A stretch of 64,000 bases of DNA from Phormidesmis sp. (GTDB lineage Bacteria; Cyanobacteriota; Cyanobacteriia; Leptolyngbyales; Leptolyngbyaceae), in NCBI GenBank assembly GCA_965248535.1, contig CBDFJR010000002.1:1536001-1600000 (forward strand). The letters are read 5' to 3'. This document shows, in pieces, positions 168-29,700 of the stretch. The translations under genes were made by a program, and so were the position numbers. Within the stretch, counting starts at the first letter, position 1. Every line of letters starts with the position of its first letter. The notes under the pieces were generated by a model. It was given only the letters and a program-made list of their open reading frames with translations, did not search any database and had not been told where the DNA came from.

Positions 168-216
168 CACAAGAAAGGGGAATCAGAGTGTCTGGTTAGA
201 CTGCTCTCATTCCCCT
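168..216 (-). terminator. probable intrinsic terminator of infC
   Basis: Minus strand AGGGGAATGAGAG…CTCTGATTCCCCT stem followed by TTCTTGT, about 30 nt after the infC stop. Confidence 0.5.
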
Positions 217-243
217 GCCTTTTTAGAATGCACTTCGCAGAGA

Positions 244-780
244 CTATTTTTTAGGAGCCATCAGCATCATCATATTTCGCCCTTCTTTTTTGGGCGCTTG
301 CTGCACCTCCGCAAACTCTTGCAGATCGGTGGCCATGCGTTTGAGCAACTCTTCGGCCAAATCGCTGTGCTGAATCTCGCGACCCCGGAACATGATTGTC
401 GCCTTCACTTTGTCGCCTGCTTTTAAGAAGCGCTCTGCCTGATTGATCCGCACGTTATAGTCGTGCTCCTCAATCTTGTAGCGCATCTTCACTTCTTTGA
501 CATCGACGTTGTGCTGCTTTTTCTTAGCTTCTTTAGCTTTTTTCTCTTGCTCGAACTTGTGCTTACCGTAGTCTACGATTTTGCACACAGGAGGATCGGC
601 TTTGTCACTGACCAAAACCAGGTCGAGTTCCTTCTCGTCTGCCAGTTGCATCGCTTCACGAGAAGACATGATTCCTAGCTGGGAGCCGTCTGAGCCGATC
701 ACTCTGACAGTCGGGAAACGAATGCGTTCATTGATGACGGGAATATCTCGATTAGGTCTTTTCTCAATCAGAGGCGCCAT
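244..780 (-). CDS. infC: translation initiation factor IF-3
   Basis: [50 protein letters not shown] and [14 protein letters not shown] motifs. Confidence 0.98.
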
Positions 781-1042
781 TAATTATTATTGTTAGGGGA
801 TTAGGTGAACAAAAAAGAGAAGCAGTCAATCAAACAAAACGGAGGAATAAGAGGAATCAAATCAAACCGGGTATTGCTTATCGATCGGGGAAACTCCGTC
901 GATCACTAGATGACTCTAACCGTCATTCTACTCACTCTGGTCTAAGTTCTGTCTAGTTCTTAACTTAAATTCTAAACGACGAAGAGGTGAGTGGGGCAAA
1001 AAGGTCGTTTAGACTGGCGAACAAACGGTGAAACTGACGTTG

Positions 1043-1110
1043 AAGAATGTGGGTTAAATCTTGTTAGTTACTTGCGTGGGCAGGGGGTACGGCACTGCCG
1101 TACCCCTACG
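1043..1110 (-). repeat. 68-bp REP-like element (GTAG plus GC hairpin plus tail), copy 1
   Basis: Perfect hairpin GGGGTACGGCA-C-TGCCGTACCCC (1084-1106) preceded by GTAG on the minus strand; aligns without gaps to copies at 28478, 28553, 28644 and 62391. Confidence 0.8.
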
Positions 1111-1173
1111 TGGAAACTTAAAACTTGTAGAATTGGGATGAGGGCCTAAATTCTTAATAATGTTGAGGAAGTT

Positions 1174-2088
1174 GTGACAAGCGCTTTACATTGGCGGCAG
1201 CGGGTAGGCAGTCAGCGCGATTGGGTCTGGCGAGGCTGGCAAACTCGCTATACCTACATTCGTGCTGAGAGGGTCGAAAAGGCTCCGCCGCTGATGTTGC
1301 TGCACGGGTTTGGGGCCTCGATCGGGCATTGGCGACAAAATCTATCGGTCTTGGGTGAGCATCACACGGTTTATGCCCTCGATATGCTGGGGTTTGGGGC
1401 TTCTGAGAAAGCGATCGCTCCCTACAATGTGGCGCTTTGGGTTGAGCAAGTTTATGACTTCTGGAAAACGTTTATTAGAGAGCCGATCGTGCTGATTGGC
1501 AACTCGATCGGCTCTCTGGTCTGCATGGCGGCGGCGGCGACCCATCCCGATATGGTGCGGGGGTTGGTGATGCTCAATTTGCCCGACCCGTCGATCGAAG
1601 AAGAGATGATTCCTGAGCCATTGCGCCCTGTGGTGGCGACGATTAAAAGCTGGGTGGCTTCGCCGCTGGTGCTCAATCTCCTGTTTCAGTTTGTGCGAAA
1701 GCCGGGCGGCGTAAAGCGCTGGGCATCGCTTGCTTACGCCAACTCTGACGCAGTGACGGATGAGTTGGTCGAGATTTTGCTAGGGGCGGCTGAAGATCGG
1801 GGATCGGCGCGGGCTTTCTGCGCCATTTTTAGAGCGATCGTGGCTCCTAAATTTGGCCCCAGTGTCAAGAAGACGCTGCCTCACCTGCAAGTGCCGATGC
1901 TGTTGCTGTGGGGCAAGAACGATCGGATGATTCCGCCTAGTCTAGCGGCTCAGTTTGGTCGCTATAACGCCGACATGAAGGTGGTAGAAATTGAGAATGC
2001 AGGTCATTGCCTGCACGATGAAGCGCCTGAGCAAGTCAACTCAGAAATCCTAACCTGGATTGCATCCTGGTCTGGAACGTCAGCCTGA
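1174..2088 (+). CDS. alpha/beta fold hydrolase
   Basis: LLHGFGAS oxyanion motif, GNSIG nucleophile elbow, WGKNDRMIP and AGHCLHDEAP catalytic Asp/His regions. Confidence 0.93.
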   Translation: MTSALHWRQRVGSQRDWVWRGWQTRYTYIRAERVEKAPPLMLLHGFGASIGHWRQNLSVLGEHHTVYALDMLGFGASEKAIAPYNVALWVEQVYDFWKTFIREPIVLIGNSIGSLVCMAAAATHPDMVRGLVMLNLPDPSIEEEMIPEPLRPVVATIKSWVASPLVLNLLFQFVRKPGGVKRWASLAYANSDAVTDELVEILLGAAEDRGSARAFCAIFRAIVAPKFGPSVKKTLPHLQVPMLLLWGKNDRMIPPSLAAQFGRYNADMKVVEIENAGHCLHDEAPEQVNSEILTWIASWSGTSA

Positions 2089-2127
2089 CTTTTTTCTAGA
2101 AATCCCTGCTGCGGAGAATTTTTATCT

Positions 2128-2721
2128 GTGACCCCTGACCCTATGACTTTGTTAGAAGCCCCGATCGTCGAACTGTCTCACCCCTCAGAAGACCTGTTTC
2201 GGATTTCTCCCCTGATTCGCATCACGCTGCTGAGTCTCTATGGGGCGTTGACGACTCCGTTGCCGTTTCTGGCGGCAGTGACGAAATCTCCAGTGCCGCC
2301 TAACTTTCTGTGGGCAGGCATTGCGCTGGGCGCGATCGGACTTTATGCAGTCCTGTGCGAACGGGTTGTGGTCGATCCGCAAGGAATTCAGGTGACCTAT
2401 CCGCAGTGGGTGCCGAAATTTTTTCGTAAAGGATGGCAACTGCCTTGGGCAGAGGTCAAAGCGTTAAAGCCCCGATCGACGGGTCAGGGCGGCTTGGTCT
2501 ACTATTTTCTCAGCCAGTCGGGGCAGGGCTATTTGTTGCCGATGCGGGTGGCAGGGTTTGCGCGGCTAGTCCGGCGAGTCGAGGCAGAAACCGGAATTGA
2601 CACGCGAGATGTCAAACCCCTGTCTCAACCGTGGATGTACATTATCTTGCTGGGGCTGACGGTGATGCTGTTAGCGATCGACAGTTGGACGATCTGGACG
2701 GCAACCACTCTGACCCACTAG
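2128..2721 (+). CDS. hypothetical membrane protein (start may be ATG 2143)
   Basis: 197-aa ORF with three hydrophobic segments, co-oriented with the hydrolase. Confidence 0.75.
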   Translation: MTPDPMTLLEAPIVELSHPSEDLFRISPLIRITLLSLYGALTTPLPFLAAVTKSPVPPNFLWAGIALGAIGLYAVLCERVVVDPQGIQVTYPQWVPKFFRKGWQLPWAEVKALKPRSTGQGGLVYYFLSQSGQGYLLPMRVAGFARLVRRVEAETGIDTRDVKPLSQPWMYIILLGLTVMLLAIDSWTIWTATTLTH

Positions 2722-2742
2722 GTTAAGAATTCGCCGCCGGAT

Positions 2743-3552
2743 TTAAGTAAGGCTAGAAGTCATCAGGTCAGTCGTCATCTCAAAGTTAGCGGTGACGGTT
2801 TGCACATCGTCGAGGTCTTCTAGGGCATCCATGAGCTTGAGGATCGATCGGGCGAGATCGGGGTGATCCACCTCGATCGTAGTGGTCGGAATCCAGCGCA
2901 ATTCCACCAGGCTAACCGTGTACTGGGTTCTGAGGGTTTGGCTCAACGCTTCCAGGTTTTCGATTTCGGTCAGGACTTCGGCAACTTTTCCGTCTTCGGT
3001 GTCGATGAGTTCATAGGTTTCGGCACCGCCTTCGAGACAGACTTCTAGAAAGTCTTCTTCGTTGACGGCATCGAGTTCAGGCGGGCGATTGCGTCCCCGC
3101 TTGGTGGATGAAGTTGTCATCGCCACTTCGACTACACCTTTTTGCTCAAACATCCAGCCGACGCACCCAGATTCACCCAGGTTGCCGCCGTTTTTGCTAA
3201 ATGCTTCTCTGAGGGTGGCGGCGGTGCGATTGCGGTTGTCGGTGAGCGCTTCGATTAATACGGCGACTCCACCAGAGCCATATCCCTCATAGCGAATGGC
3301 TTCTAGCTCGGTGTTGTCTGCGCCTTTGCCTGCACCTTTAGCGATCGCTCGATCAATATTATCGTTGGGAATGCTGGCAGCTTTGGCCTTCTCGATCGCG
3401 GTGCGAAGCTGAAAATTAGCGGCCGGATCGGGAACGCCACTACGAGCCGCCACGATAATTTCTCGCGAAATTTTGGTGAAGACTTTGCCTTTGACCGCAT
3501 CGACTCGTGCTTTTTGGCGCTTAATATTCGCCCACTTACTATGTCCTGCCAT
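2743..3552 (-). CDS. yebC: YebC/PmpR family protein
   Basis: MAGHSKWANIKRQK N-terminus; YEGYGSGGVAVLIEALTDNRNRT; LEDLDDVQTVTANF. Confidence 0.97.
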   Translation of the reverse strand: MAGHSKWANIKRQKARVDAVKGKVFTKISREIIVAARSGVPDPAANFQLRTAIEKAKAASIPNDNIDRAIAKGAGKGADNTELEAIRYEGYGSGGVAVLIEALTDNRNRTAATLREAFSKNGGNLGESGCVGWMFEQKGVVEVAMTTSSTKRGRNRPPELDAVNEEDFLEVCLEGGAETYELIDTEDGKVAEVLTEIENLEALSQTLRTQYTVSLVELRWIPTTTIEVDHPDLARSILKLMDALEDLDDVQTVTANFEMTTDLMTSSLT

Positions 3553-25366: not shown

Positions 25367-25415
25367 TGACCTCTGACCTCGAAAGTTTGACCTCTGACCT
25401 CGAAATTTCGACATT
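25367..25415 (+). repeat. heptamer tandem repeat (TGACCTC-type, 21-bp higher-order unit)
   Basis: TGACCTC TGACCTC GAAAGTT TGACCTC TGACCTC GAAATTT CGACATT. Confidence 0.7.
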
Positions 25416-25567
25416 TGAGGGGAAGTTGTTGAAGATGAGTTAAGAAAAGCGGGGTTGGCAAAAGCACACGTCATAGTTTAGGCAGCATTATTTGTGTTTG
25501 TAAAATCATGCTCTGGGCTTGTTGACGATCGTACCCCTGTGCTTGCCCCTTGTTTGCCTCTTTAACT

Positions 25568-28456
25568 ATGGTTCGCCCCCAACGTTTGCAGAAACAGCCC
25601 GCTTTTTACCGCTTGGTATTTGTGGTTTGTTTGACGATCGGGCTATTGGTTGCCTCTCCCTGGGTCAGCGCAAAAGAGAGCCAGCAGCCAAAGCCGCAAG
25701 AGTGGCAAATAAACGGTATCTTGGCGGCTTTAGATGATGGTTATCCGGGTGTCAAGCAGGCAGCTTTTGGAAAATTAGCTGAATACGATGCAAAAGATTT
25801 AGCAGCGTTTCCTAAGCAGTCGGAGGAGATGGTAAAGAAAGCGATCGGTCTTGTCAACGACAGCAAGGCAGAGTCTTATCTTCGCATCAACGCGGCTGGG
25901 GCATTGGGAAGGCTAGGCAAAGCCGATGCGAGTGTGGTGAAATCTCTGACCAACTTAGTCAACGATAGCAAGGCAGAGTCTTATCTTCGCATCCATGCGG
26001 CTAGGGCATTGGGAAAGCTAGGCAAAGCCGATGCGAATGTGGTGAAATTCCTGACCAACTTACTCAACGATAGCAAAGCAGACTCCAGTCTTCGCATCAA
26101 CGCGGCTGATGTATTGGGAGCTTCGGGCAAAGCCGATGTGAATGGGGTGAAATTCCTGACCAACTTAGTCAACGACAGCAAGGCAGAGTCTTATCTTCGC
26201 ATCAACGCGGCTGGGGCATTGGGAAGGCTAGGCAAAGCCGATGCGAGTGTGGTGAAATTCCTGACCAACTTAATCAACGATGGCAAAGCAGACTCCAATC
26301 TCCGCATGCAGGCAGCGGAGGCATTGGTAACTTTGAGCAAAGCCGATGTGAATGTGGTGAAATTCCTGACCAACTTAGTCAACGACAGCAAAGCAGACTT
26401 CAGTCTCCGCATCAATGCGGCTTATGCCTTAGGAAAGCTAGGCAAAGCCGATGCGAGTGTGGTGAAATTCCTGACCAACTTAATCAACGACAGCAGGGCA
26501 ACGTCCTATGCCCGCGTCATAGCGGCTGATGCACTGGGAAATCTGGGCAAAGCCGATGCGAGTGTGATGGAGTTTCTGACCAACTTAATCAATGACAGTA
26601 AGGCAGACTTTGATAGCCGCGTCAAAGCGGCTTATGCATTGGGAAATCTCAAACGGCTCAATTTGGCTGAAGTATTTGTTCTCATCAATCTCATCTACGC
26701 TGCTGATTCTAATCATCTTGTTGAGCCGCGTTTCGCTGTCTACTTCTACAGTGGAGGCGACAGCAGCATAAAAACCTTGATCAAGTGGATTGGTCGCCCC
26801 GACTCTAAAAGCATTCCAACTCACCTCACTCACGTCGAAGCCAAAGCAACTTTAGAAGTCTTCAGAGACGTATGGGAACCCAGTAAGAGCTTTAGCAGCA
26901 TTCGTGGTGACTTAGCCAAAGCGATCGCCGATGTCGCCAAAATGGGTAAATGGGAAACTAGTGACATTGCTCTTCTCACCACCCACGCTCAAAACCTTAG
27001 TGCTATCCACTCCAACAGCGCCGATTCTGTTACTAAAGCCATTGAATCTCTCACGGTTTGGCAATGGTTCAACAAAGCCAGAAACGTTATTGCCACGCAT
27101 ATTGCCTTTTGGCTTGCCCTAATCTTCGCCTATCCCAAATTTCCCCAAGTTCAGGCAATCTTCTTCTGGAATCCTTGGGTGCGGCGCATTCTGGGCGTGG
27201 GCTACGTCGGCTTTCTGCTCACCTGGGTTCCCTTCCTGCGCCGCAAACTCTTTGAACCCTTCAAATTTTCATTGCTGGCAGATTCGGGAGTCGATCGCTT
27301 CAACCCCGCCGCCTACTTTCCCCAATCCGACGTGAAAACACTGGATGCAAAAGAAGGGGTTGCGATCTCCACCGCCATTCCTGCGATCAAAAGTCAAATC
27401 GTCCTCGAAGGCGACTCCGGCTTAGGCAAATCGATGTTCTTGCGTCACCTCGTCAAACACTCCCCGCGCACCGTCGTCTTTTTGCCCGCCCGCAAATGTG
27501 AGCAAGGCGTAATCGAAGCCATCCAAACCAAACTGCACGGACAGGCCCAAGATGCCGAATTCCTCAAAAATCTGATTTACAGTGGCGCGATCGACCTCTG
27601 CATCGATGGACTCAACGAAGTCACCGCCGACACCCGCGCCAAAATCACCCAATTTGTCGAAAGCTACTTCAAAGGCAACATCATCATGACCACTCAACCC
27701 CTAGAGTGGCTGCCGCCTTCGACTGCCAAAATCTATCAACTGCAACCGCTCCGCAGCGATCAGATTCAAGACTTCTTGCTGTCGAGAGGCGCGATCGTGG
27801 CTCCTGACTTGGCAGACAAATATACTCACGCCTGCTGCACCTATCTCGCTGAAGTTTTGAACAATCAACAACTGCCCGAAGAACTCGCGGCCATTCAGCG
27901 CACCCTCTCCAACCCGATGGATCTCACCGTCGTCGCGCAAATGATTGCCTTGGGTAAACAGCCCAACCTACTGCGACTGCAAGAGCAGCAATACAACCTG
28001 ATGGCGGCAGAATACCAAAAAGCGTGGAATCAAGACTTCCCCCTCAAAAAATTCTCTGAAGCCGTCTATCAACTCCGCCTCAACGACGAAAAAGCTTTAC
28101 CTGCCACCGAGTTTTATCAAGAACTGGTCAGCATGGAAGACGAAAAATACAAAATGGTCGTCAGTCGCCAATGGAAAGATGGCAAGGGCGAAGCCCAACA
28201 CGAATGGTATTTTCGCCACGACAAAATCATGGAATTCTTCATCGTGCAAACCTTCCTCGGTGACGCACCCCAAGCTCAAAATCGCCTCCTCGATCACATG
28301 GGCGATCCTCGCTTTCGCGGAGTCTATTTCCTGCTCGCCACCCTGCTGCCCTTCAACGATGCCAAAGACCTGCGTGAACGGCTGATCCAATACGCCGCCG
28401 ACACCAAAGATCACACCGTCAGCGACACCTTTGTTCAACTGTTGCGAACCCGATAG
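25568..28456 (+). CDS. signal peptide, HEAT (PBS-lyase-like) repeats, TM segments and NACHT-like P-loop NTPase
   Basis: N-terminal hydrophobic signal; about 7.6 repeats of 35 aa; TM segment HIAFWLALIFAY…GFLLTWVPF; Walker A GDSGLGKS; Walker B LCIDGLNE; NPMDL; WYFRHDKIMEFF. Confidence 0.85.
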   Translation: MVRPQRLQKQPAFYRLVFVVCLTIGLLVASPWVSAKESQQPKPQEWQINGILAALDDGYPGVKQAAFGKLAEYDAKDLAAFPKQSEEMVKKAIGLVNDSKAESYLRINAAGALGRLGKADASVVKSLTNLVNDSKAESYLRIHAARALGKLGKADANVVKFLTNLLNDSKADSSLRINAADVLGASGKADVNGVKFLTNLVNDSKAESYLRINAAGALGRLGKADASVVKFLTNLINDGKADSNLRMQAAEALVTLSKADVNVVKFLTNLVNDSKADFSLRINAAYALGKLGKADASVVKFLTNLINDSRATSYARVIAADALGNLGKADASVMEFLTNLINDSKADFDSRVKAAYALGNLKRLNLAEVFVLINLIYAADSNHLVEPRFAVYFYSGGDSSIKTLIKWIGRPDSKSIPTHLTHVEAKATLEVFRDVWEPSKSFSSIRGDLAKAIADVAKMGKWETSDIALLTTHAQNLSAIHSNSADSVTKAIESLTVWQWFNKARNVIATHIAFWLALIFAYPKFPQVQAIFFWNPWVRRILGVGYVGFLLTWVPFLRRKLFEPFKFSLLADSGVDRFNPAAYFPQSDVKTLDAKEGVAISTAIPAIKSQIVLEGDSGLGKSMFLRHLVKHSPRTVVFLPARKCEQGVIEAIQTKLHGQAQDAEFLKNLIYSGAIDLCIDGLNEVTADTRAKITQFVESYFKGNIIMTTQPLEWLPPSTAKIYQLQPLRSDQIQDFLLSRGAIVAPDLADKYTHACCTYLAEVLNNQQLPEELAAIQRTLSNPMDLTVVAQMIALGKQPNLLRLQEQQYNLMAAEYQKAWNQDFPLKKFSEAVYQLRLNDEKALPATEFYQELVSMEDEKYKMVVSRQWKDGKGEAQHEWYFRHDKIMEFFIVQTFLGDAPQAQNRLLDHMGDPRFRGVYFLLATLLPFNDAKDLRERLIQYAADTKDHTVSDTFVQLLRTR
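25853..26650 (+). repeat. intragenic 105-bp tandem repeat (about 7.6 copies)
   Basis: Units start at 25853, 25958, 26063, 26168, 26273, 26378, 26483 and 26588; GGCAAAGCCGATGCGAGTGTGGTGAAATTCCTGACCAACTTA recurs nearly unchanged. Confidence 0.95.
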
Positions 28457-28474: not shown

Positions 28475-28735
28475 CTAAAGATCGTGGATTAGATAATGTC
28501 GGTTACTTGCAGAGATGATGGGCACGGCAATGCTATGCCCTTACGCAGACTAAAGATCGTGGATTAAATCATATCGGTTACTTGCAGAGATAATGGGCAC
28601 GGCAATGCCATGCCCTTACGCAGACTTCTGCTTGGATTTACTAAAGATCGTGGATTAAATCATATCGGTTACTTGCAGAGATAATGGGCACAGCAATGCC
28701 ATGCCCTTACGCAGACTTCTGCTTGATTTGATTTA
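28475..28735 (-). repeat. three tandem 75-bp units, each containing the 68-bp REP-like element
   Basis: Units start at 28475, 28550 and 28641, each CTAAAGATCGTGGATTA…GGGCAC(G/A)GCAATGC(C/T)ATGCCCTTACGCAGA. Confidence 0.92.
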
Positions 28736-28830: not shown

Positions 28831-29700
28831 ATGAAATGTATTATCGATCGCCGGGCCAAATTCTCAGCGAGTCATCGCTATTGGCTCCCCGCCCTCAGCG
28901 AAGCCGAAAACCTGGAGCGGTTTGGTGCCTGCGCCCGTCCGATGGGACATGGACACAACTACGTCCTCTACGTCTCAATGCTGGGTGACTTAGACGACTA
29001 TGGCATGGTGCTTAACCTCTCAGATGTCAAGCACGTTATTAAGAACGAAATCACCAGCCAGCTTGATTTTTCGTTTCTCAACGAGGCGTGGGCAGACTTT
29101 CAGCAGACCCTGCCGACGACCGAAAATATTGCACGGGTGATTTGGCAACGGCTCGAATCTCACTTGCCGATCGTCAACATTCGCCTCTATGAACACCCCG
29201 AACTCTGGGCCGATTATCAAGGAAACCACATGGAAGCTTTTCTCACCGTCAGTACACATTTCAGCGCCGCTCACCGCCTTGCCCGCCCTGATCTCAGCTT
29301 TGAAAAGAACTGTGAAATCTACGGCAAGTGTGCGCGCCCCAATGGTCACGGTCACAACTACCATCTAGAAGTGACGATCAAAGGTGAAATCGATCCGCAA
29401 ACGGGAATGTTAGCGGATCTAGTAGCATTTGAGAACGCGATCGCTGATCACGTCACTGAACCGTTTGATCACACGTTTTTGAATAAAGATATTCCCTATT
29501 TTGAACAAGTTGTGCCCACCGCAGAAAATATTGCCGTGCACATTCGCGATTTGCTAGAGCAACCGATTCACAACATTGGCGCACAGCTTTATAAAGTCAA
29601 ACTGATCGAGAGTCCCAATAACTCTTGCGAAGTTTACGGGGCGGGCGTGTCAGACGCGATCGCCATGATGATGCGCGAACCCAAACTAGCGATCGCCTGA
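28831..29700 (+). CDS. queD: tandem-domain 6-carboxytetrahydropterin/6-pyruvoyltetrahydropterin synthase
   Basis: Two PTPS domains, each with FSA(S/A)HR, C-x4-GHGHNY and PT(T/A)ENIA. Confidence 0.88.
   Translation: MKCIIDRRAKFSASHRYWLPALSEAENLERFGACARPMGHGHNYVLYVSMLGDLDDYGMVLNLSDVKHVIKNEITSQLDFSFLNEAWADFQQTLPTTENIARVIWQRLESHLPIVNIRLYEHPELWADYQGNHMEAFLTVSTHFSAAHRLARPDLSFEKNCEIYGKCARPNGHGHNYHLEVTIKGEIDPQTGMLADLVAFENAIADHVTEPFDHTFLNKDIPYFEQVVPTAENIAVHIRDLLEQPIHNIGAQLYKVKLIESPNNSCEVYGAGVSDAIAMMMREPKLAIA

Follow-up and report, generated by a model that had tools for sequence, protein, structure and literature searches.

A putative transmembrane NLR-related protein of cyanobacteria that joins an N-terminal HEAT array to a terminal NACHT module

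Introduction

The antiphage bNACHT proteins of bacteria have a NACHT module and occur abundantly and as paralogs in cyanobacteria and multicellular bacteria (Kibby et al., bioRxiv 10.1101/2022.07.19.500537). HEAT and other solenoid repeats are the presumed sensors in that report, and relatives carry TIR or EAD domains. The sensors are described there as lying C-terminal to the NACHT and the effectors as mostly N-terminal, with the whole protein on one side of the membrane; the NLR-type receptors whose mechanism is described in this literature sense in the cytoplasm (10.1101/2022.07.19.500537).

Here we describe a protein encoded in a 64,000-nucleotide stretch of Phormidesmis sp. DNA (the window; assembly GCA_965248535.1, contig CBDFJR010000002.1). 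The protein is a variant of these bacterial NLR-related proteins with the layout back to front. A NACHT module, abundance in cyanobacteria, solenoid repeats and TIR or EAD domains in relatives are common to both groups. In contrast to bNACHT proteins, its repeats are N-terminal behind a signal peptide, a membrane passage precedes the NACHT, and nothing follows HD2 where a C-terminal sensor would be expected. An architecture of signal peptide, N-terminal repeats, membrane passage and NACHT was not found in the available text of Kibby et al. (10.1101/2022.07.19.500537).

Two further groups of proteins bear comparison. Toll-like and other transmembrane pattern-recognition receptors link an extracytoplasmic solenoid sensor through the membrane to a signalling domain in the cytoplasm. 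The cyanobacterial protein follows the same logic by analogy, and one of its relatives ends in a TIR domain, but sequence and fold are unrelated and the cytoplasmic engine is a NACHT NTPase instead of a TIR or kinase domain. The KAP family P-loop NTPases are, like this protein, membrane-associated and STAND-like, and they carry transmembrane helices as insertions inside the P-loop domain. Assignment to the KAP family was rejected: the hydrophobic segments reach no further than aa 557, at least 58 residues ahead of the Walker A motif that begins at aa 615; none lies inside the NTPase, and the fold match is to NACHT.

Results and Discussion

Domain order

Translation of the open reading frame at 25568..28456 (+) gives a protein of 962 aa (Table 1). 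A TTG at 25550, upstream of the ATG, is likewise open; homologs start at the ATG. The parts follow one another as signal peptide, eight HEAT units, helical juxtamembrane domain, membrane module and terminal NACHT. ORF translation together with motif, repeat and profile searches located the signal peptide, HEAT units, helical region and NACHT where the initial annotation of this DNA had placed them. That annotation had also recorded the absence of a C-terminal sensor repeat or effector, and in agreement with this nothing follows HD2, the structural match to the NACHT module (VIA-align) running to the last residue.

Table 1. Features of the predicted protein, with positions in the window.
Feature	Position	Strand	Basis or detail
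Sec-type signal peptide, aa 1-35	25568..25672	+	hydropathy, homolog pattern; basic n-region, hydrophobic core, V-S-A then K-E
Ectodomain N-terminal cap, aa 36-95	25673..25852	+	PKPKPQ-WQINGI motif conserved in homologs
HEAT array, eight 35-aa units, aa 96-375	25853..26692	+	TRF, unit identity matrix, Pfam HEAT_2, alphaRep chains
Helical juxtamembrane domain of ectodomain, aa 376-484	26693..27019	+	AF2, subfamily conservation
Continuous 37-residue helix into TM, aa 485-521 (hydrophobic core aa 506-522)	27020..27133	+	AF2, hydropathy
Membrane-interface module: basic aromatic loop aa 523-540, Gly/Pro-rich hydrophobic segment aa 541-557	27134..27238	+	homolog conservation
NACHT module (pre-NBD segment, NBD, HD1, WHD, HD2), aa 558-962	27239..28453	+	VIA-align, Foldseek, motifs
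Walker A	27410-27433	+	GDSGLGKS, aa 615-622
Walker B	27596-27619	+	LCIDGLNE, aa 677-684
TTQP (sensor-1 motif)	27689-27700	+	T-T-Q-P, aa 708-711
SNPMDL	27908-27925	+	aa 781-786
WHD His motif WYFRHDKIMEFF	28205-28240	+	aa 880-891, contains FRHDK (H884)

The HEAT array and its variable face

A 105-bp period was detected by TRF at 25853..26646 (7.6 copies, 81% matches, score 931). The unit table resolves this into eight 35-aa units from aa 96, of which seven are closely alike and the degenerate eighth caps the solenoid. Both the copy number of about 7.6 and the near identity of units 1 and 4, noted initially, were borne out by TRF and the identity matrix, the latter giving 98% identity between these two units in DNA and 97% in protein. 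Pfam HEAT_2 matched eight stretches (E 6.2e-34; 116.6 bits against a cut-off of 27.7), and the tandem helix-turn-helix units identify the array as HEAT repeats. alphaRep chains were retrieved with E 1.7e-24 by single-sequence phmmer and with E 3e-62 by the family profile. The units of alphaRep and HEAT_PBS-type repeats (PDB 9sah, 6fsq, 4zv6, 3ltj) align with those of the array column by column, although a unit has 35 aa here and 31 there, and here natural, putatively exported repeats are joined to a NACHT.

Within the array of this gene, entropy was highest at unit positions 16, 20, 13 and 9. Across the family, sampled as 76 proteins with at least six in-register units, the top five positions were 9, 16, 12, 13 and 8, and position 20 was unremarkable. 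The initial annotation had listed positions 8, 9, 12, 13, 16 and 20 as variable; the first five stand out family-wide, whereas position 20 does so in this gene only. Its statement that the spacing equals that of alphaRep was confirmed, as the positions varying among alphaRep units align onto all six. Between units, pN was 0.41 at the six alphaRep-type positions compared with 0.10 elsewhere.

Near-identical repeats are a general feature, since 55 of the 76 family arrays contain a unit pair at least 90% identical. Among close relatives the position of Walker A shifts in 35-aa steps corresponding to 1 to 11 units, a change in repeat number that fits reshuffling by recombination, many of these sequences being metagenome assemblies prone to repeat collapse. 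Between units, omega was about 1.0 over the six variable positions, rising to 1.36 when only the four most variable were counted. Between two orthologs omega over the array was 0.31, and 6 of their 26 differences fell at the six variable positions, where 4.5 were expected. Thus the initially suggested comparison across relatives brought out the variation in unit number, but these omega values, between units and between two orthologs, provided no evidence for positive selection or an excess of non-synonymous change. Relaxed constraint would also explain the pattern.

Membrane topology

The N-terminus contains R3, R6, K9 and R15, a hydrophobic core at aa 16-30 with a hydropathy of 2.78 over 15 aa, and V-S-A followed by K. 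This succession of basic n-region, h-region and small-x-small site matches the pattern of a Sec-type signal peptide, and cleavage is predicted. A signal-peptide-like segment is present in 78 of the 83 homologs that reach the N-cap motif, 77 of these 78 having a small-x-small site, and a strict rule recognized a signal peptide in 84 of 128 distant representatives. The PKPKPQ-WQINGI motif is conserved across homologs immediately behind this segment. Because the basic n-region, hydrophobic core and V-S-A site are conserved (78/83 homologs), the HEAT array should be exported.

Cysteine content and the domains of relatives point the same way. The ectodomain (aa 36-505) has no Cys and the NACHT part has four; family-wide, Cys makes up 0.31% of ectodomains versus 1.03% of the cytoplasmic part. 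Ectodomains were free of Cys in 42 of 128 representatives, and about 15 representatives, as well as a paralog in the same genome, carry a Cys pair directly behind the signal peptide. In relative P0166 the N-terminal part is Peripla_BP_6 (E 8e-37), and in relatives P0183 and P0213 it is GspD-N0 with or without PDZ, in each case ahead of the same membrane module and NACHT. C-terminal to the NACHT, EAD11 was found in 4 and TIR_2 in 1 of 34 representatives scanned, which were hand-picked for odd lengths, so that these counts are not frequencies. Together the signal peptide, the Cys pattern, the periplasmic-type domains and TIR/EAD11 tails of relatives, and the fold match support the originally proposed layout of an exported HEAT array and a cytoplasmic NACHT. 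We consider it likely that the sensor lies outside and the switch inside.

Behind the signal peptide, the hydropathy profile has two hydrophobic segments, each 17 residues long. The initial annotation had assumed several transmembrane segments; of the two, aa 506-522 is a clear transmembrane helix, while aa 541-557 may not cross. Residues 485-521 form the same continuous helix in both AF2 models. In the long model the segment aa 541-557 is broken, whereas in the short model aa 536-553 form one 18-residue helix (block-mean pLDDT 75-86). The membrane module is near-invariant in 14 homologs and strongly conserved in 141 sequences. Within the transmembrane helix, all of these 141 sequences share W515, and conservation reaches at least 90% at H511, L518 and Y522. 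The family-wide mean of K+R is 3.3 in the loop after TM1, 3.2 behind the second segment and 2.1 ahead of TM1, and the loop has a mean D+E of 0.14. Since K+R reaches 3.3 in the loop, with so few acidic residues, and 3.2 behind the second segment, both stretches look cytoplasmic. These charge counts favour one crossing and a re-entrant segment, and the Gly/Pro-rich segment aa 541-557 is probably re-entrant from the cytoplasmic side. If both hydrophobic segments crossed, the NTPase would lie outside; from the charge counts and domain logic we infer an odd number of crossings.

A different topology would keep both the HEAT array and the NACHT in the cytoplasm. The N-terminal stretch would then be an anchor or unused, the two segments would pair as a hairpin whose external loop is short, and the protein would be a membrane-tethered but otherwise ordinary NLR-like protein with an N-terminal sensor. 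The presence of two 17-residue segments, the continuous second helix of one AF2 model, and the basic residues before TM1 plus those after the second segment (2.1 + 3.2), which exceed the 3.3 of the loop, are all compatible with such a hairpin. Nevertheless, an 18-residue loop with a net charge of about +3.2 and hardly any acidic residues is a poor external loop, and 78 of 83 homologs keep the four basic residues, strong hydrophobic core and V-S-A site. Considering also the periplasmic-binding, GspD-N0 and PDZ domains of relatives at the same position and the Cys-poor or Cys-pair ectodomains, we regard the hairpin as highly improbable.

Cyanobacterial Sec signal peptides serve the plasma membrane and the thylakoid membrane alike. 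The protein could therefore reside in the thylakoid membrane with the HEAT array facing the lumen and be otherwise as described, and its sequence favours neither membrane. The non-cyanobacterial relatives and the secretin-N0 and periplasmic-binding ectodomains point to the periplasm instead, and we consider a thylakoid location very unlikely.

The helices of the juxtamembrane domain were modelled by AF2 with pLDDT above 90, and a fold search with this domain returned nothing beyond generic helical-repeat matches (Z up to 8.4). The domain is conserved in the type-1 subfamily and is missing from the paralog type.

The NACHT module

The AF2 model of aa 340-962 has a mean pLDDT of 93.8, and its NACHT module gave a Foldseek match with E 5.8e-8. 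In VIA-align the best structural matches were the animal NLRs NLRC4 (PDB 4kxf_B; Z 21.4, 375 aligned, rmsd 4.0), NLRP3 (7alv; Z 20.3, 350 aligned, rmsd 3.6) and NOD2 (5irn; Z 19.9). Other STAND clades scored lower (NB-ARC Z 12.8, Apaf-1 11.6, MalT 11.6), and the module thus has an NBD-HD1-WHD-HD2 fold nearer to NACHT than to these. The rmsd to closed ADP-type structures was 3.6-4.4 A, compared with 13.5-15.2 A to active oligomers. The NLRP3 alignment begins at NLRP3 residue 131-134, which we take to be the FISNA segment adjoining the NLRP3 membrane-binding linker. Pfam PF05729 NACHT reached only 17.7 bits over aa 610-630, below its gathering score of 26.7, an operational threshold; we attribute this to a family too divergent for the model. 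The NACHT-like NTPase first recognized from sequence motifs is therefore upheld by the AlphaFold model, with Z 19.9-21.4 to NLRC4, NLRP3 and NOD2 despite the sub-threshold Pfam score.

The NACHT Walker B consensus is hhhhD-G-h-D-E, the sensor-1 Arg sits in an [ST]x-R-P motif, and the WHD His and the HD1 NP(L)xL are conserved motifs with roles in NACHT STAND NTPases. In the present family the G, G and K of Walker A (G-x4-GK[ST]) are invariant in 141 sequences. Walker B retains D680 and E684, and Asn683 replaces the second Asp. As D, G, L, N and E are each at least 90% conserved family-wide, this Asn is a family trait and not decay. The N-P of SNPMDL is invariant and H884 of FRHDK is at least 90% conserved, and these motifs lie in the parts aligned to NLR HD1 and WHD, respectively. 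The sensor-1 Arg is absent, and TTQP has Gln in its place, a residue found without exception in 62 sequences and with at least 90% conservation in 141. With the sensor-1 Gln and the Walker B Asn both family-wide, hydrolysis may be slow or absent.

The protein thus shares with animal NLRs the closed ADP-type conformation, the WHD His and NP(L/M)xL. It differs from them in its identity of only 10-15%, the lack of LRRs, CARD and PYD, an N-terminal sensor apparently across the membrane, the sensor-1 Gln in place of Arg, and the Walker B D-G-L-N-E.

Candidate function

We propose, with a probability of roughly 0.55, that the gene product is an NLR-type (NACHT/STAND) receptor in which one polypeptide spans the membrane and exposes the sensor opposite the cytoplasm. 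The signal peptide would direct the first 470 residues through the cytoplasmic membrane. The exported part would comprise the HEAT solenoid, with helix-face positions 8, 9, 12, 13 and 16 varying by unit, and then the juxtamembrane domain, and the long helix would return the chain through the membrane. The basic, aromatic-rich loop and the Gly/Pro-rich hydrophobic segment would lodge in the inner leaflet, the complete NACHT following in the cytoplasm. A ligand would bind at the variable solenoid face, and the long helix, together with the invariant membrane module, could relay the change to the NACHT. The NACHT might then open from its closed state, swap nucleotide and oligomerise, and the output could come from the membrane module itself, by clustering, or from an unlinked partner that is recruited.

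The protein is presumably a receptor and not a scaffold. It may, as suggested initially, sense a phage, non-self or damage ligand, signal by oligomerisation and use the membrane segment as effector. That the response is of a conflict or defence kind has slightly less than an even chance in our estimate. Most tentatively, we hypothesize a transmembrane NLR that guards the shared periplasm of filamentous bacteria, watching for phage parts, foreign proteins or debris of damaged neighbours with a HEAT face re-dealt by recombination. On oligomerisation its NACHT might assemble the membrane module into a lesion or draw in TIR/EAD-type partners, stopping or sacrificing the cell.

The distribution of the family, which comprises 922 clusters at 50% identity, bears on this hypothesis and on a non-immune role with the same topology. 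In the latter case filamentous bacteria would use the protein as a conserved device of the envelope or periplasm, in which the NACHT acts as a nucleotide-controlled switch and positions or releases a periplasmic HEAT scaffold or reports on envelope state, cell-cell contact or nutrient ligands. The named hosts are filamentous cyanobacteria and one Candidatus Parabeggiatoa. Identity of this gene to Nostocales genes is 62-72% over the membrane module and NACHT, a degree of conservation that is unusual for an arms-race gene and, spanning cyanobacterial orders, would suit an envelope device. The neighbours (a CitMHS transporter, a PTPS enzyme, GerMN-type and LmeA-like proteins) are housekeeping and not defence genes, and no neighbour was common to more than 20 of 77 loci. 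PADLOC had no match over the NACHT region and NCBIfam nothing above cut-offs, and the protein itself lacks an effector domain. A non-immune role would also agree with the Peripla_BP_6 ectodomain of one relative, a solute-binding domain typical of nutrient or signal sensors, with omega not above 1, and with the departure of Walker B and sensor-1 from the hydrolysing consensus.

On the other hand, presence is patchy, in 11 of 31 related genomes and 20 of 401 cyanobacterial genomes phylum-wide. Paralogs, fragments and stop-codon copies were found, and pseudogenisation is frequent; together with the patchiness this is turnover typical of accessory genes. The near-identical units with hypervariable helix-face positions likewise fit an envelope device poorly, as do the TIR/EAD11 tails of relatives, domains treated as conflict-system effectors or adaptors by Kibby et al. 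(10.1101/2022.07.19.500537). We therefore find the non-immune envelope role rather unlikely.

If the layout predicts function, the NACHT switch also serves bacteria for reading the space beyond the cytoplasmic membrane, and one bacterial protein would join TLR-like sensing outside to NLR-like switching inside, which are separate in animals. Comprising about 900 clusters and encoded as one polypeptide, with no partner gene, the family is a compact system for studying how a signal crosses the membrane into a STAND NTPase. It also supplies natural alphaRep-like binders with a defined variable face and a way to address immunity or self/non-self sensing in multicellular bacteria by experiment.

Two named assignments were rejected. 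EruA (NCBIfam NF058535), a NACHT antiphage protein with HEAT repeats, scored 32.1 bits against an equivalog cut-off of 1000 and matched in the HEAT region only, and the database name 'PBS lyase' is unsupported, CpcE scoring 44.7 bits against a cut-off of 330. Database annotation of the family is misleading, since members appear under the names 'PBS lyase' and 'HEAT repeat protein' and their NACHT escapes Pfam; some partial members do carry the name 'NACHT domain-containing protein'.

The domain order of the window protein, in which an exported HEAT array is joined through a juxtamembrane domain and a membrane module to a NACHT, is most likely that of a receptor by which an extracytoplasmic ligand is signalled to a nucleotide switch. 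The gene is a single open frame with an in-frame TTG 18 bases 5′ of its ATG, and the Met-Val-Arg-Pro start of the protein is common to homologs. Cut from aa 96, the array consists of seven alike 35-aa units and a degenerate eighth; at the DNA level, units 1 and 4 share 98% identity. The array matched Pfam HEAT_2 (E 6.2e-34) as well as alphaRep sequences in the PDB, for which E was 1.7e-24 when the single sequence was the query and 3e-62 when a family profile was used. The alignment places the differences among alphaRep units on unit positions 8, 9, 12, 13, 16 and 20 of the window protein, which bears out the statement of the initial annotation that the variable sites have the spacing of alphaRep ligand-binding positions. 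The parts that it had listed were also confirmed, namely the open frame, the 35-aa HEAT units, and the NACHT-like NTPase with its motifs. Some sources name the protein a phycobilin lyase, and this name was dropped (CpcE, 44.7 bits against a cut-off of 330). A third transmembrane segment at aa 364-379 was likewise dropped, since this hydrophobic stretch forms helix 2 of the degenerate eighth unit.

Features of the window gene, its surroundings and family copies in the same genome
Feature	Position	Details
Window gene	25568..28456 (+)	962 aa
21-bp tandem repeat	25367..25412	2.2 copies, 92% matches; within the 312 bp that precede the start codon; may be a regulatory or repeat element
Tandem repeat of the HEAT array	25853..26646	105-bp period, 7.6 copies, 81% matches, score 931 (Tandem Repeats Finder)
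Juxtamembrane domain	aa 376-484	
True membrane crossing (favoured reading)	aa 506-522	
Re-entrant or interfacial segment (favoured reading)	aa 541-557	
Walker A	aa 615-622	GDSGLGKS
Walker B	aa 677-684	LCIDGLNE
TTQP motif	aa 708-711	
SNPMDL motif	aa 781-786	
WHD His motif	aa 880-891	WYFRHDKIMEFF
Intergenic tandem repeats	28475..28729	immediately 3′ of the gene; one of 75-bp and one of 91-bp period, both with two copies, 93-97% matches; in each copy a G+C-rich hairpin on the minus strand (9 pairs, loop of 3)
PTPS neighbour	28831..29700	289 aa; two tandem 6-pyruvoyl-tetrahydropterin synthase domains (Pfam, two stretches, E 6.2e-65)
Full paralog	172..2778 of own-genome stretch L002 (contig C2)	868 aa; about 218 kb upstream of the window gene
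NACHT remnant	1444..2019 of own-genome stretch L003 (contig C5)	191-aa ORF
Further ORF	619..888 of L003	89 aa; upstream of the NACHT remnant

Membrane topology

Placement of the HEAT array outside and of the NACHT inside is well supported. The protein begins with four basic residues, followed by a strong hydrophobic core and V-S-A, then K-E. Of 121 listed close homologs, 83 reach the N-cap motif; a signal-peptide-like segment lies upstream in 78 of the 83, with a small-x-small site in 77 of these 78, and the remaining five have start codons called within the signal peptide. Among distant representatives 84/128 have a signal peptide by a strict rule, and many that fail the rule begin within a HEAT repeat or are less hydrophobic at their start. 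Additionally, the 470-residue ectodomain (aa 36-505) contains no Cys and the NACHT part contains four. Across the family Cys makes up 0.31% of ectodomains and 1.03% of the cytoplasmic part, and the ectodomain is Cys-free in 42/128 representatives. A Cys pair directly behind the signal peptide is present in the own-genome paralog and in about 15 representatives, picked by eye among 20 flagged by script.

Domain exchanges among relatives agree with this orientation. In family protein P0166 a Peripla_BP_6 domain (E 8e-37) is N-terminal to the family membrane module and NACHT, and in P0183 and P0213 the N-terminal part is GspD-N0 with or without PDZ; these swapped domains are typical of the periplasm. 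When P0213 was used as the query, one more N0-type protein (P0288) was recovered, and the named matches among the 120 listed were all cyanobacterial. At the opposite end, EAD11 lies behind the NACHT in P0242, P0192, P0233 and P0221, three of which have a signal-peptide-like start, and TIR_2 lies behind it in P0210; the 34 proteins scanned for domains were chosen for unusual length, so these counts are no frequencies.

The charges around the membrane module also bear on topology. Averaged over 141 sequences, the loop of 18 residues behind the first hydrophobic helix contains 3.3 K+R and 0.14 D+E, and mean K+R is 3.2 after the second hydrophobic segment and 2.1 before the first helix. By the positive-inside rule, both flanks of aa 541-557 would be cytoplasmic. 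Since this segment also contains many invariant Gly and Pro residues, the sequences favour one true crossing together with a re-entrant or interfacial segment. The AlphaFold models agree with the one-crossing reading only in part. Both contain a single 37-residue helix (aa 485-521) running from the ectodomain into the membrane; beyond it the long model has short helices at aa 526-533, 536-541, 546-553 and 555-573, and the short model, at lower confidence, makes aa 536-553 one helix. Together the signal peptide, Cys content, swapped ectodomains, C-terminal tails and charges support the initial reading of an exported array joined to a cytoplasmic NACHT. For a cyanobacterial protein, the lumen of the thylakoid is also a possible far side.

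The NACHT module

Fold and motifs make the C-terminal half a full NACHT module, although it misses the Pfam cut-off and lacks the sensor-1 Arg. Pfam NACHT scored 17.7 bits against a cut-off of 26.7, with the match limited to the surroundings of Walker A, and AAA_16 matched this half at E 2.6e-4. NCBIfam gave no match above its cut-offs for the window protein, PADLOC gave nothing over the NACHT part and just two weak matches, both over the HEAT region, and a single-sequence phmmer search of PDB sequences with the NTPase part had MCM9 as its best match (E 0.11). The AlphaFold2 model of aa 340-962, built on 62 aligned family members, has a mean pLDDT of 93.8, and its top Foldseek matches were NLRC4, NLRP14, NOD2 and NLRP3 (from E 5.8e-8). 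With VIA-align the best superpositions were on NLRC4 4kxf_B (Z 21.4, 375 aligned residues, rmsd 4.0 Å), the NLRP3 NACHT 7alv (Z 20.3, 350 residues, 3.6 Å) and NOD2 5irn (Z 19.9, 360 residues, 4.2 Å), with lower scores for the NRC1 NB-ARC (Z 12.8), Apaf-1 (Z 11.6) and MalT (Z 11.6). The modelling agrees with the NACHT assigned initially, and the NACHT fold and motifs place the protein with bacterial NLR-related proteins.

The structural match to NLRs spans about aa 556 to the final residue, so nothing follows HD2, as expected from the earlier view that the protein has neither a C-terminal repeat sensor nor an effector domain. The rmsd was 3.6-4.4 Å to closed ADP-type structures as opposed to 13.5-15.2 Å to active oligomers, which indicates that the model shows the resting state. 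Each of the five NACHT motifs listed in the table is either invariant or conserved to at least 90% across 141 or 62 aligned relatives. The usual NACHT consensus has a second Asp in Walker B and an Arg at sensor 1; family-wide, the former is replaced by Asn and the latter by Gln. We dropped the KAP NTPases as an assignment because the hydrophobic segments of the window protein lie outside the P-loop domain.

The membrane module

The most conserved part of the protein is residues 511-565. In an alignment of 141 sequences with 38-66% identity elsewhere, W515 and Y546 never vary, and H511, L518, Y522, P523, Q529, F533, W534, R539, G543, P555, R558, P564 and F565 reach 90% conservation or more. As this conservation goes beyond the needs of an anchor, the alignment suggests a specific role for the module in signal relay or output. 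A model of the juxtamembrane domain and membrane module, compared with 48,161 PDB representatives, gave generic helical matches to importin and designed helical repeats, the best at Z 8.4, a level that the tool regards as uninformative for helical proteins. ESM Atlas gave no usable match for aa 376-600. A four-copy complex prediction for aa 480-600, run without controls, scored 0.00 against a mark of 0.42.

Variation and turnover of the array

Among the seven good units compared pairwise, non-synonymous differences make up a proportion of 0.41 over the six alphaRep-type positions, against 0.10 over the remaining 29; the corresponding omega values are 1.0 and 0.38, and omega reaches 1.36 at the four most variable positions. 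The same sites vary across the family. In 76 proteins with at least six in-register units, entropy within proteins is highest at unit positions 9, 16, 12, 13 and 8 (0.41-0.59, against about 0.1-0.2 elsewhere), with positions 11, 14, 15, 17 and 18 fixed by the search pattern. At least one unit pair with at least 90% identity occurs in 55 of these 76 arrays. In the closest relatives the location of Walker A shifts by 35-aa steps, corresponding to about 1 to 11 units, although several of these sequences are metagenome assemblies in which repeats may be collapsed.

Comparison with a same-genus ortholog of equal length, aligned without gaps, gave dN/dS values of 0.31 for the array and 0.10 for the NACHT. 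The variable sites do vary between units; against the ortholog only 6 of 26 array differences fall on the six positions, where 4.5 are expected, and an excess of non-synonymous change was not found. Neither the unit-to-unit omega nor the dN/dS against the ortholog demonstrates positive selection on the array. In the same comparison dS is 0.13 in the array (25853..26692), three times below the 0.40 of the NACHT, a hint that the array was recently recombined or homogenised. These observations fit relaxed or diversifying pressure on a binding face, with turnover of units and perhaps their homogenisation.

An assembly artefact as the source of the repeats was also considered. No piece among Logan contigs runs across the whole array, and the few joints found have short sides of 23-32 letters and skips of 330, 548 and 700, none a multiple of 105. 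The same-genus ortholog, in genome G003, has an ORF of equal length, can be aligned gaplessly across the 918 codons compared and shows 94% identity in its C-terminal part. Because of this gapless match and the in-register arrays of 76 family members we regard the array as real, and the artefact explanation was dropped.

Family distribution and proposed function

With aa 380-962 as the query, 922 of 1.84 billion cluster representatives matched at E ≤0.001 and 496 at E ≤1e-30. In a collection of 5.8 billion proteins 839 pass, of which the 120 listed are 65-94% identical over the query; the named ones among these are all cyanobacterial (for example Phormidesmis, Nostoc, Leptolyngbya boryana, Tolypothrix, Calothrix and Fortiea). 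Furthermore, 444 of 489 candidate stretches in species-representative genomes encode a relative, the best 80 all cyanobacterial, and one distant member is named from Candidatus Parabeggiatoa. Matches were present in 11/31 related genomes, including 5/7 within the same genus, and in 20 out of 401 genomes sampled evenly across the phylum, 13 of the 20 being in a single family (13/46).

The host genome itself holds further copies. The full paralog has a signal peptide with an adjoining Cys pair, divergent non-identical HEAT repeats, and the family membrane module and NACHT, the latter with 64% identity to that of the window gene; it lacks the juxtamembrane domain of type 1, the window gene's subfamily, and represents a second subfamily of about 15/128 representatives. 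The 191-aa ORF corresponds to the C-terminal third of the NACHT (78% identical to the window gene), with a tail matching a Phormidesmis priestleyi protein (P0018), and is a remnant of a third family copy. Family copies are often broken in other genomes as well, as fragments or split copies. Such copies occur in many cyanobacterial genomes (G245, G155, G088, G175, G032 and G375); one has an internal TGA and TAA, several lie in two or three frames, and several are C-terminal stubs.

We propose that a ligand outside the cytoplasm would be sensed by the exported variable solenoid and reported to the nucleotide switch, the signal passing from the juxtamembrane helical domain along the long helix through the membrane and the invariant inner-leaflet module to the closed NACHT. 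In a protein without a tail, output could come from the clustered membrane module or from a partner encoded elsewhere. The TIR and EAD11 tails of relatives, the turnover of copies and the named hosts, all of which are filamentous, together point to conflict or defence-type outputs. According to the Kibby preprint (bioRxiv 10.1101/2022.07.19.500537), Kaur et al. (eLife 2020, PMC7159879) and a further report (PNAS 2024, PMC10907252), NACHT and related NTPase systems are enriched in multicellular bacteria. The architecture of the window protein differs from those of the bNACHT proteins described in the text of the Kibby preprint. The titles, abstract openings and text passages covered by the literature search contained no account of an exported HEAT array linked via the membrane to a NACHT.

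As judged from sequence, a defence-type receptor is a plausible functional reading. Its main rival is a non-immune role in envelope or cell-cell signalling, for which the highly conserved core, the relative with Peripla_BP_6 and the housekeeping neighbourhood of the window gene speak, and against which stand the defence-type tails and copy turnover. Across 77 loci no conserved neighbour or operon partner was found in more than 20. The window gene is stand-alone and outside any recognisable defence island; its neighbours encode a CitMHS-type transporter, GerMN-type and LmeA-like proteins, and a two-domain PTPS enzyme.
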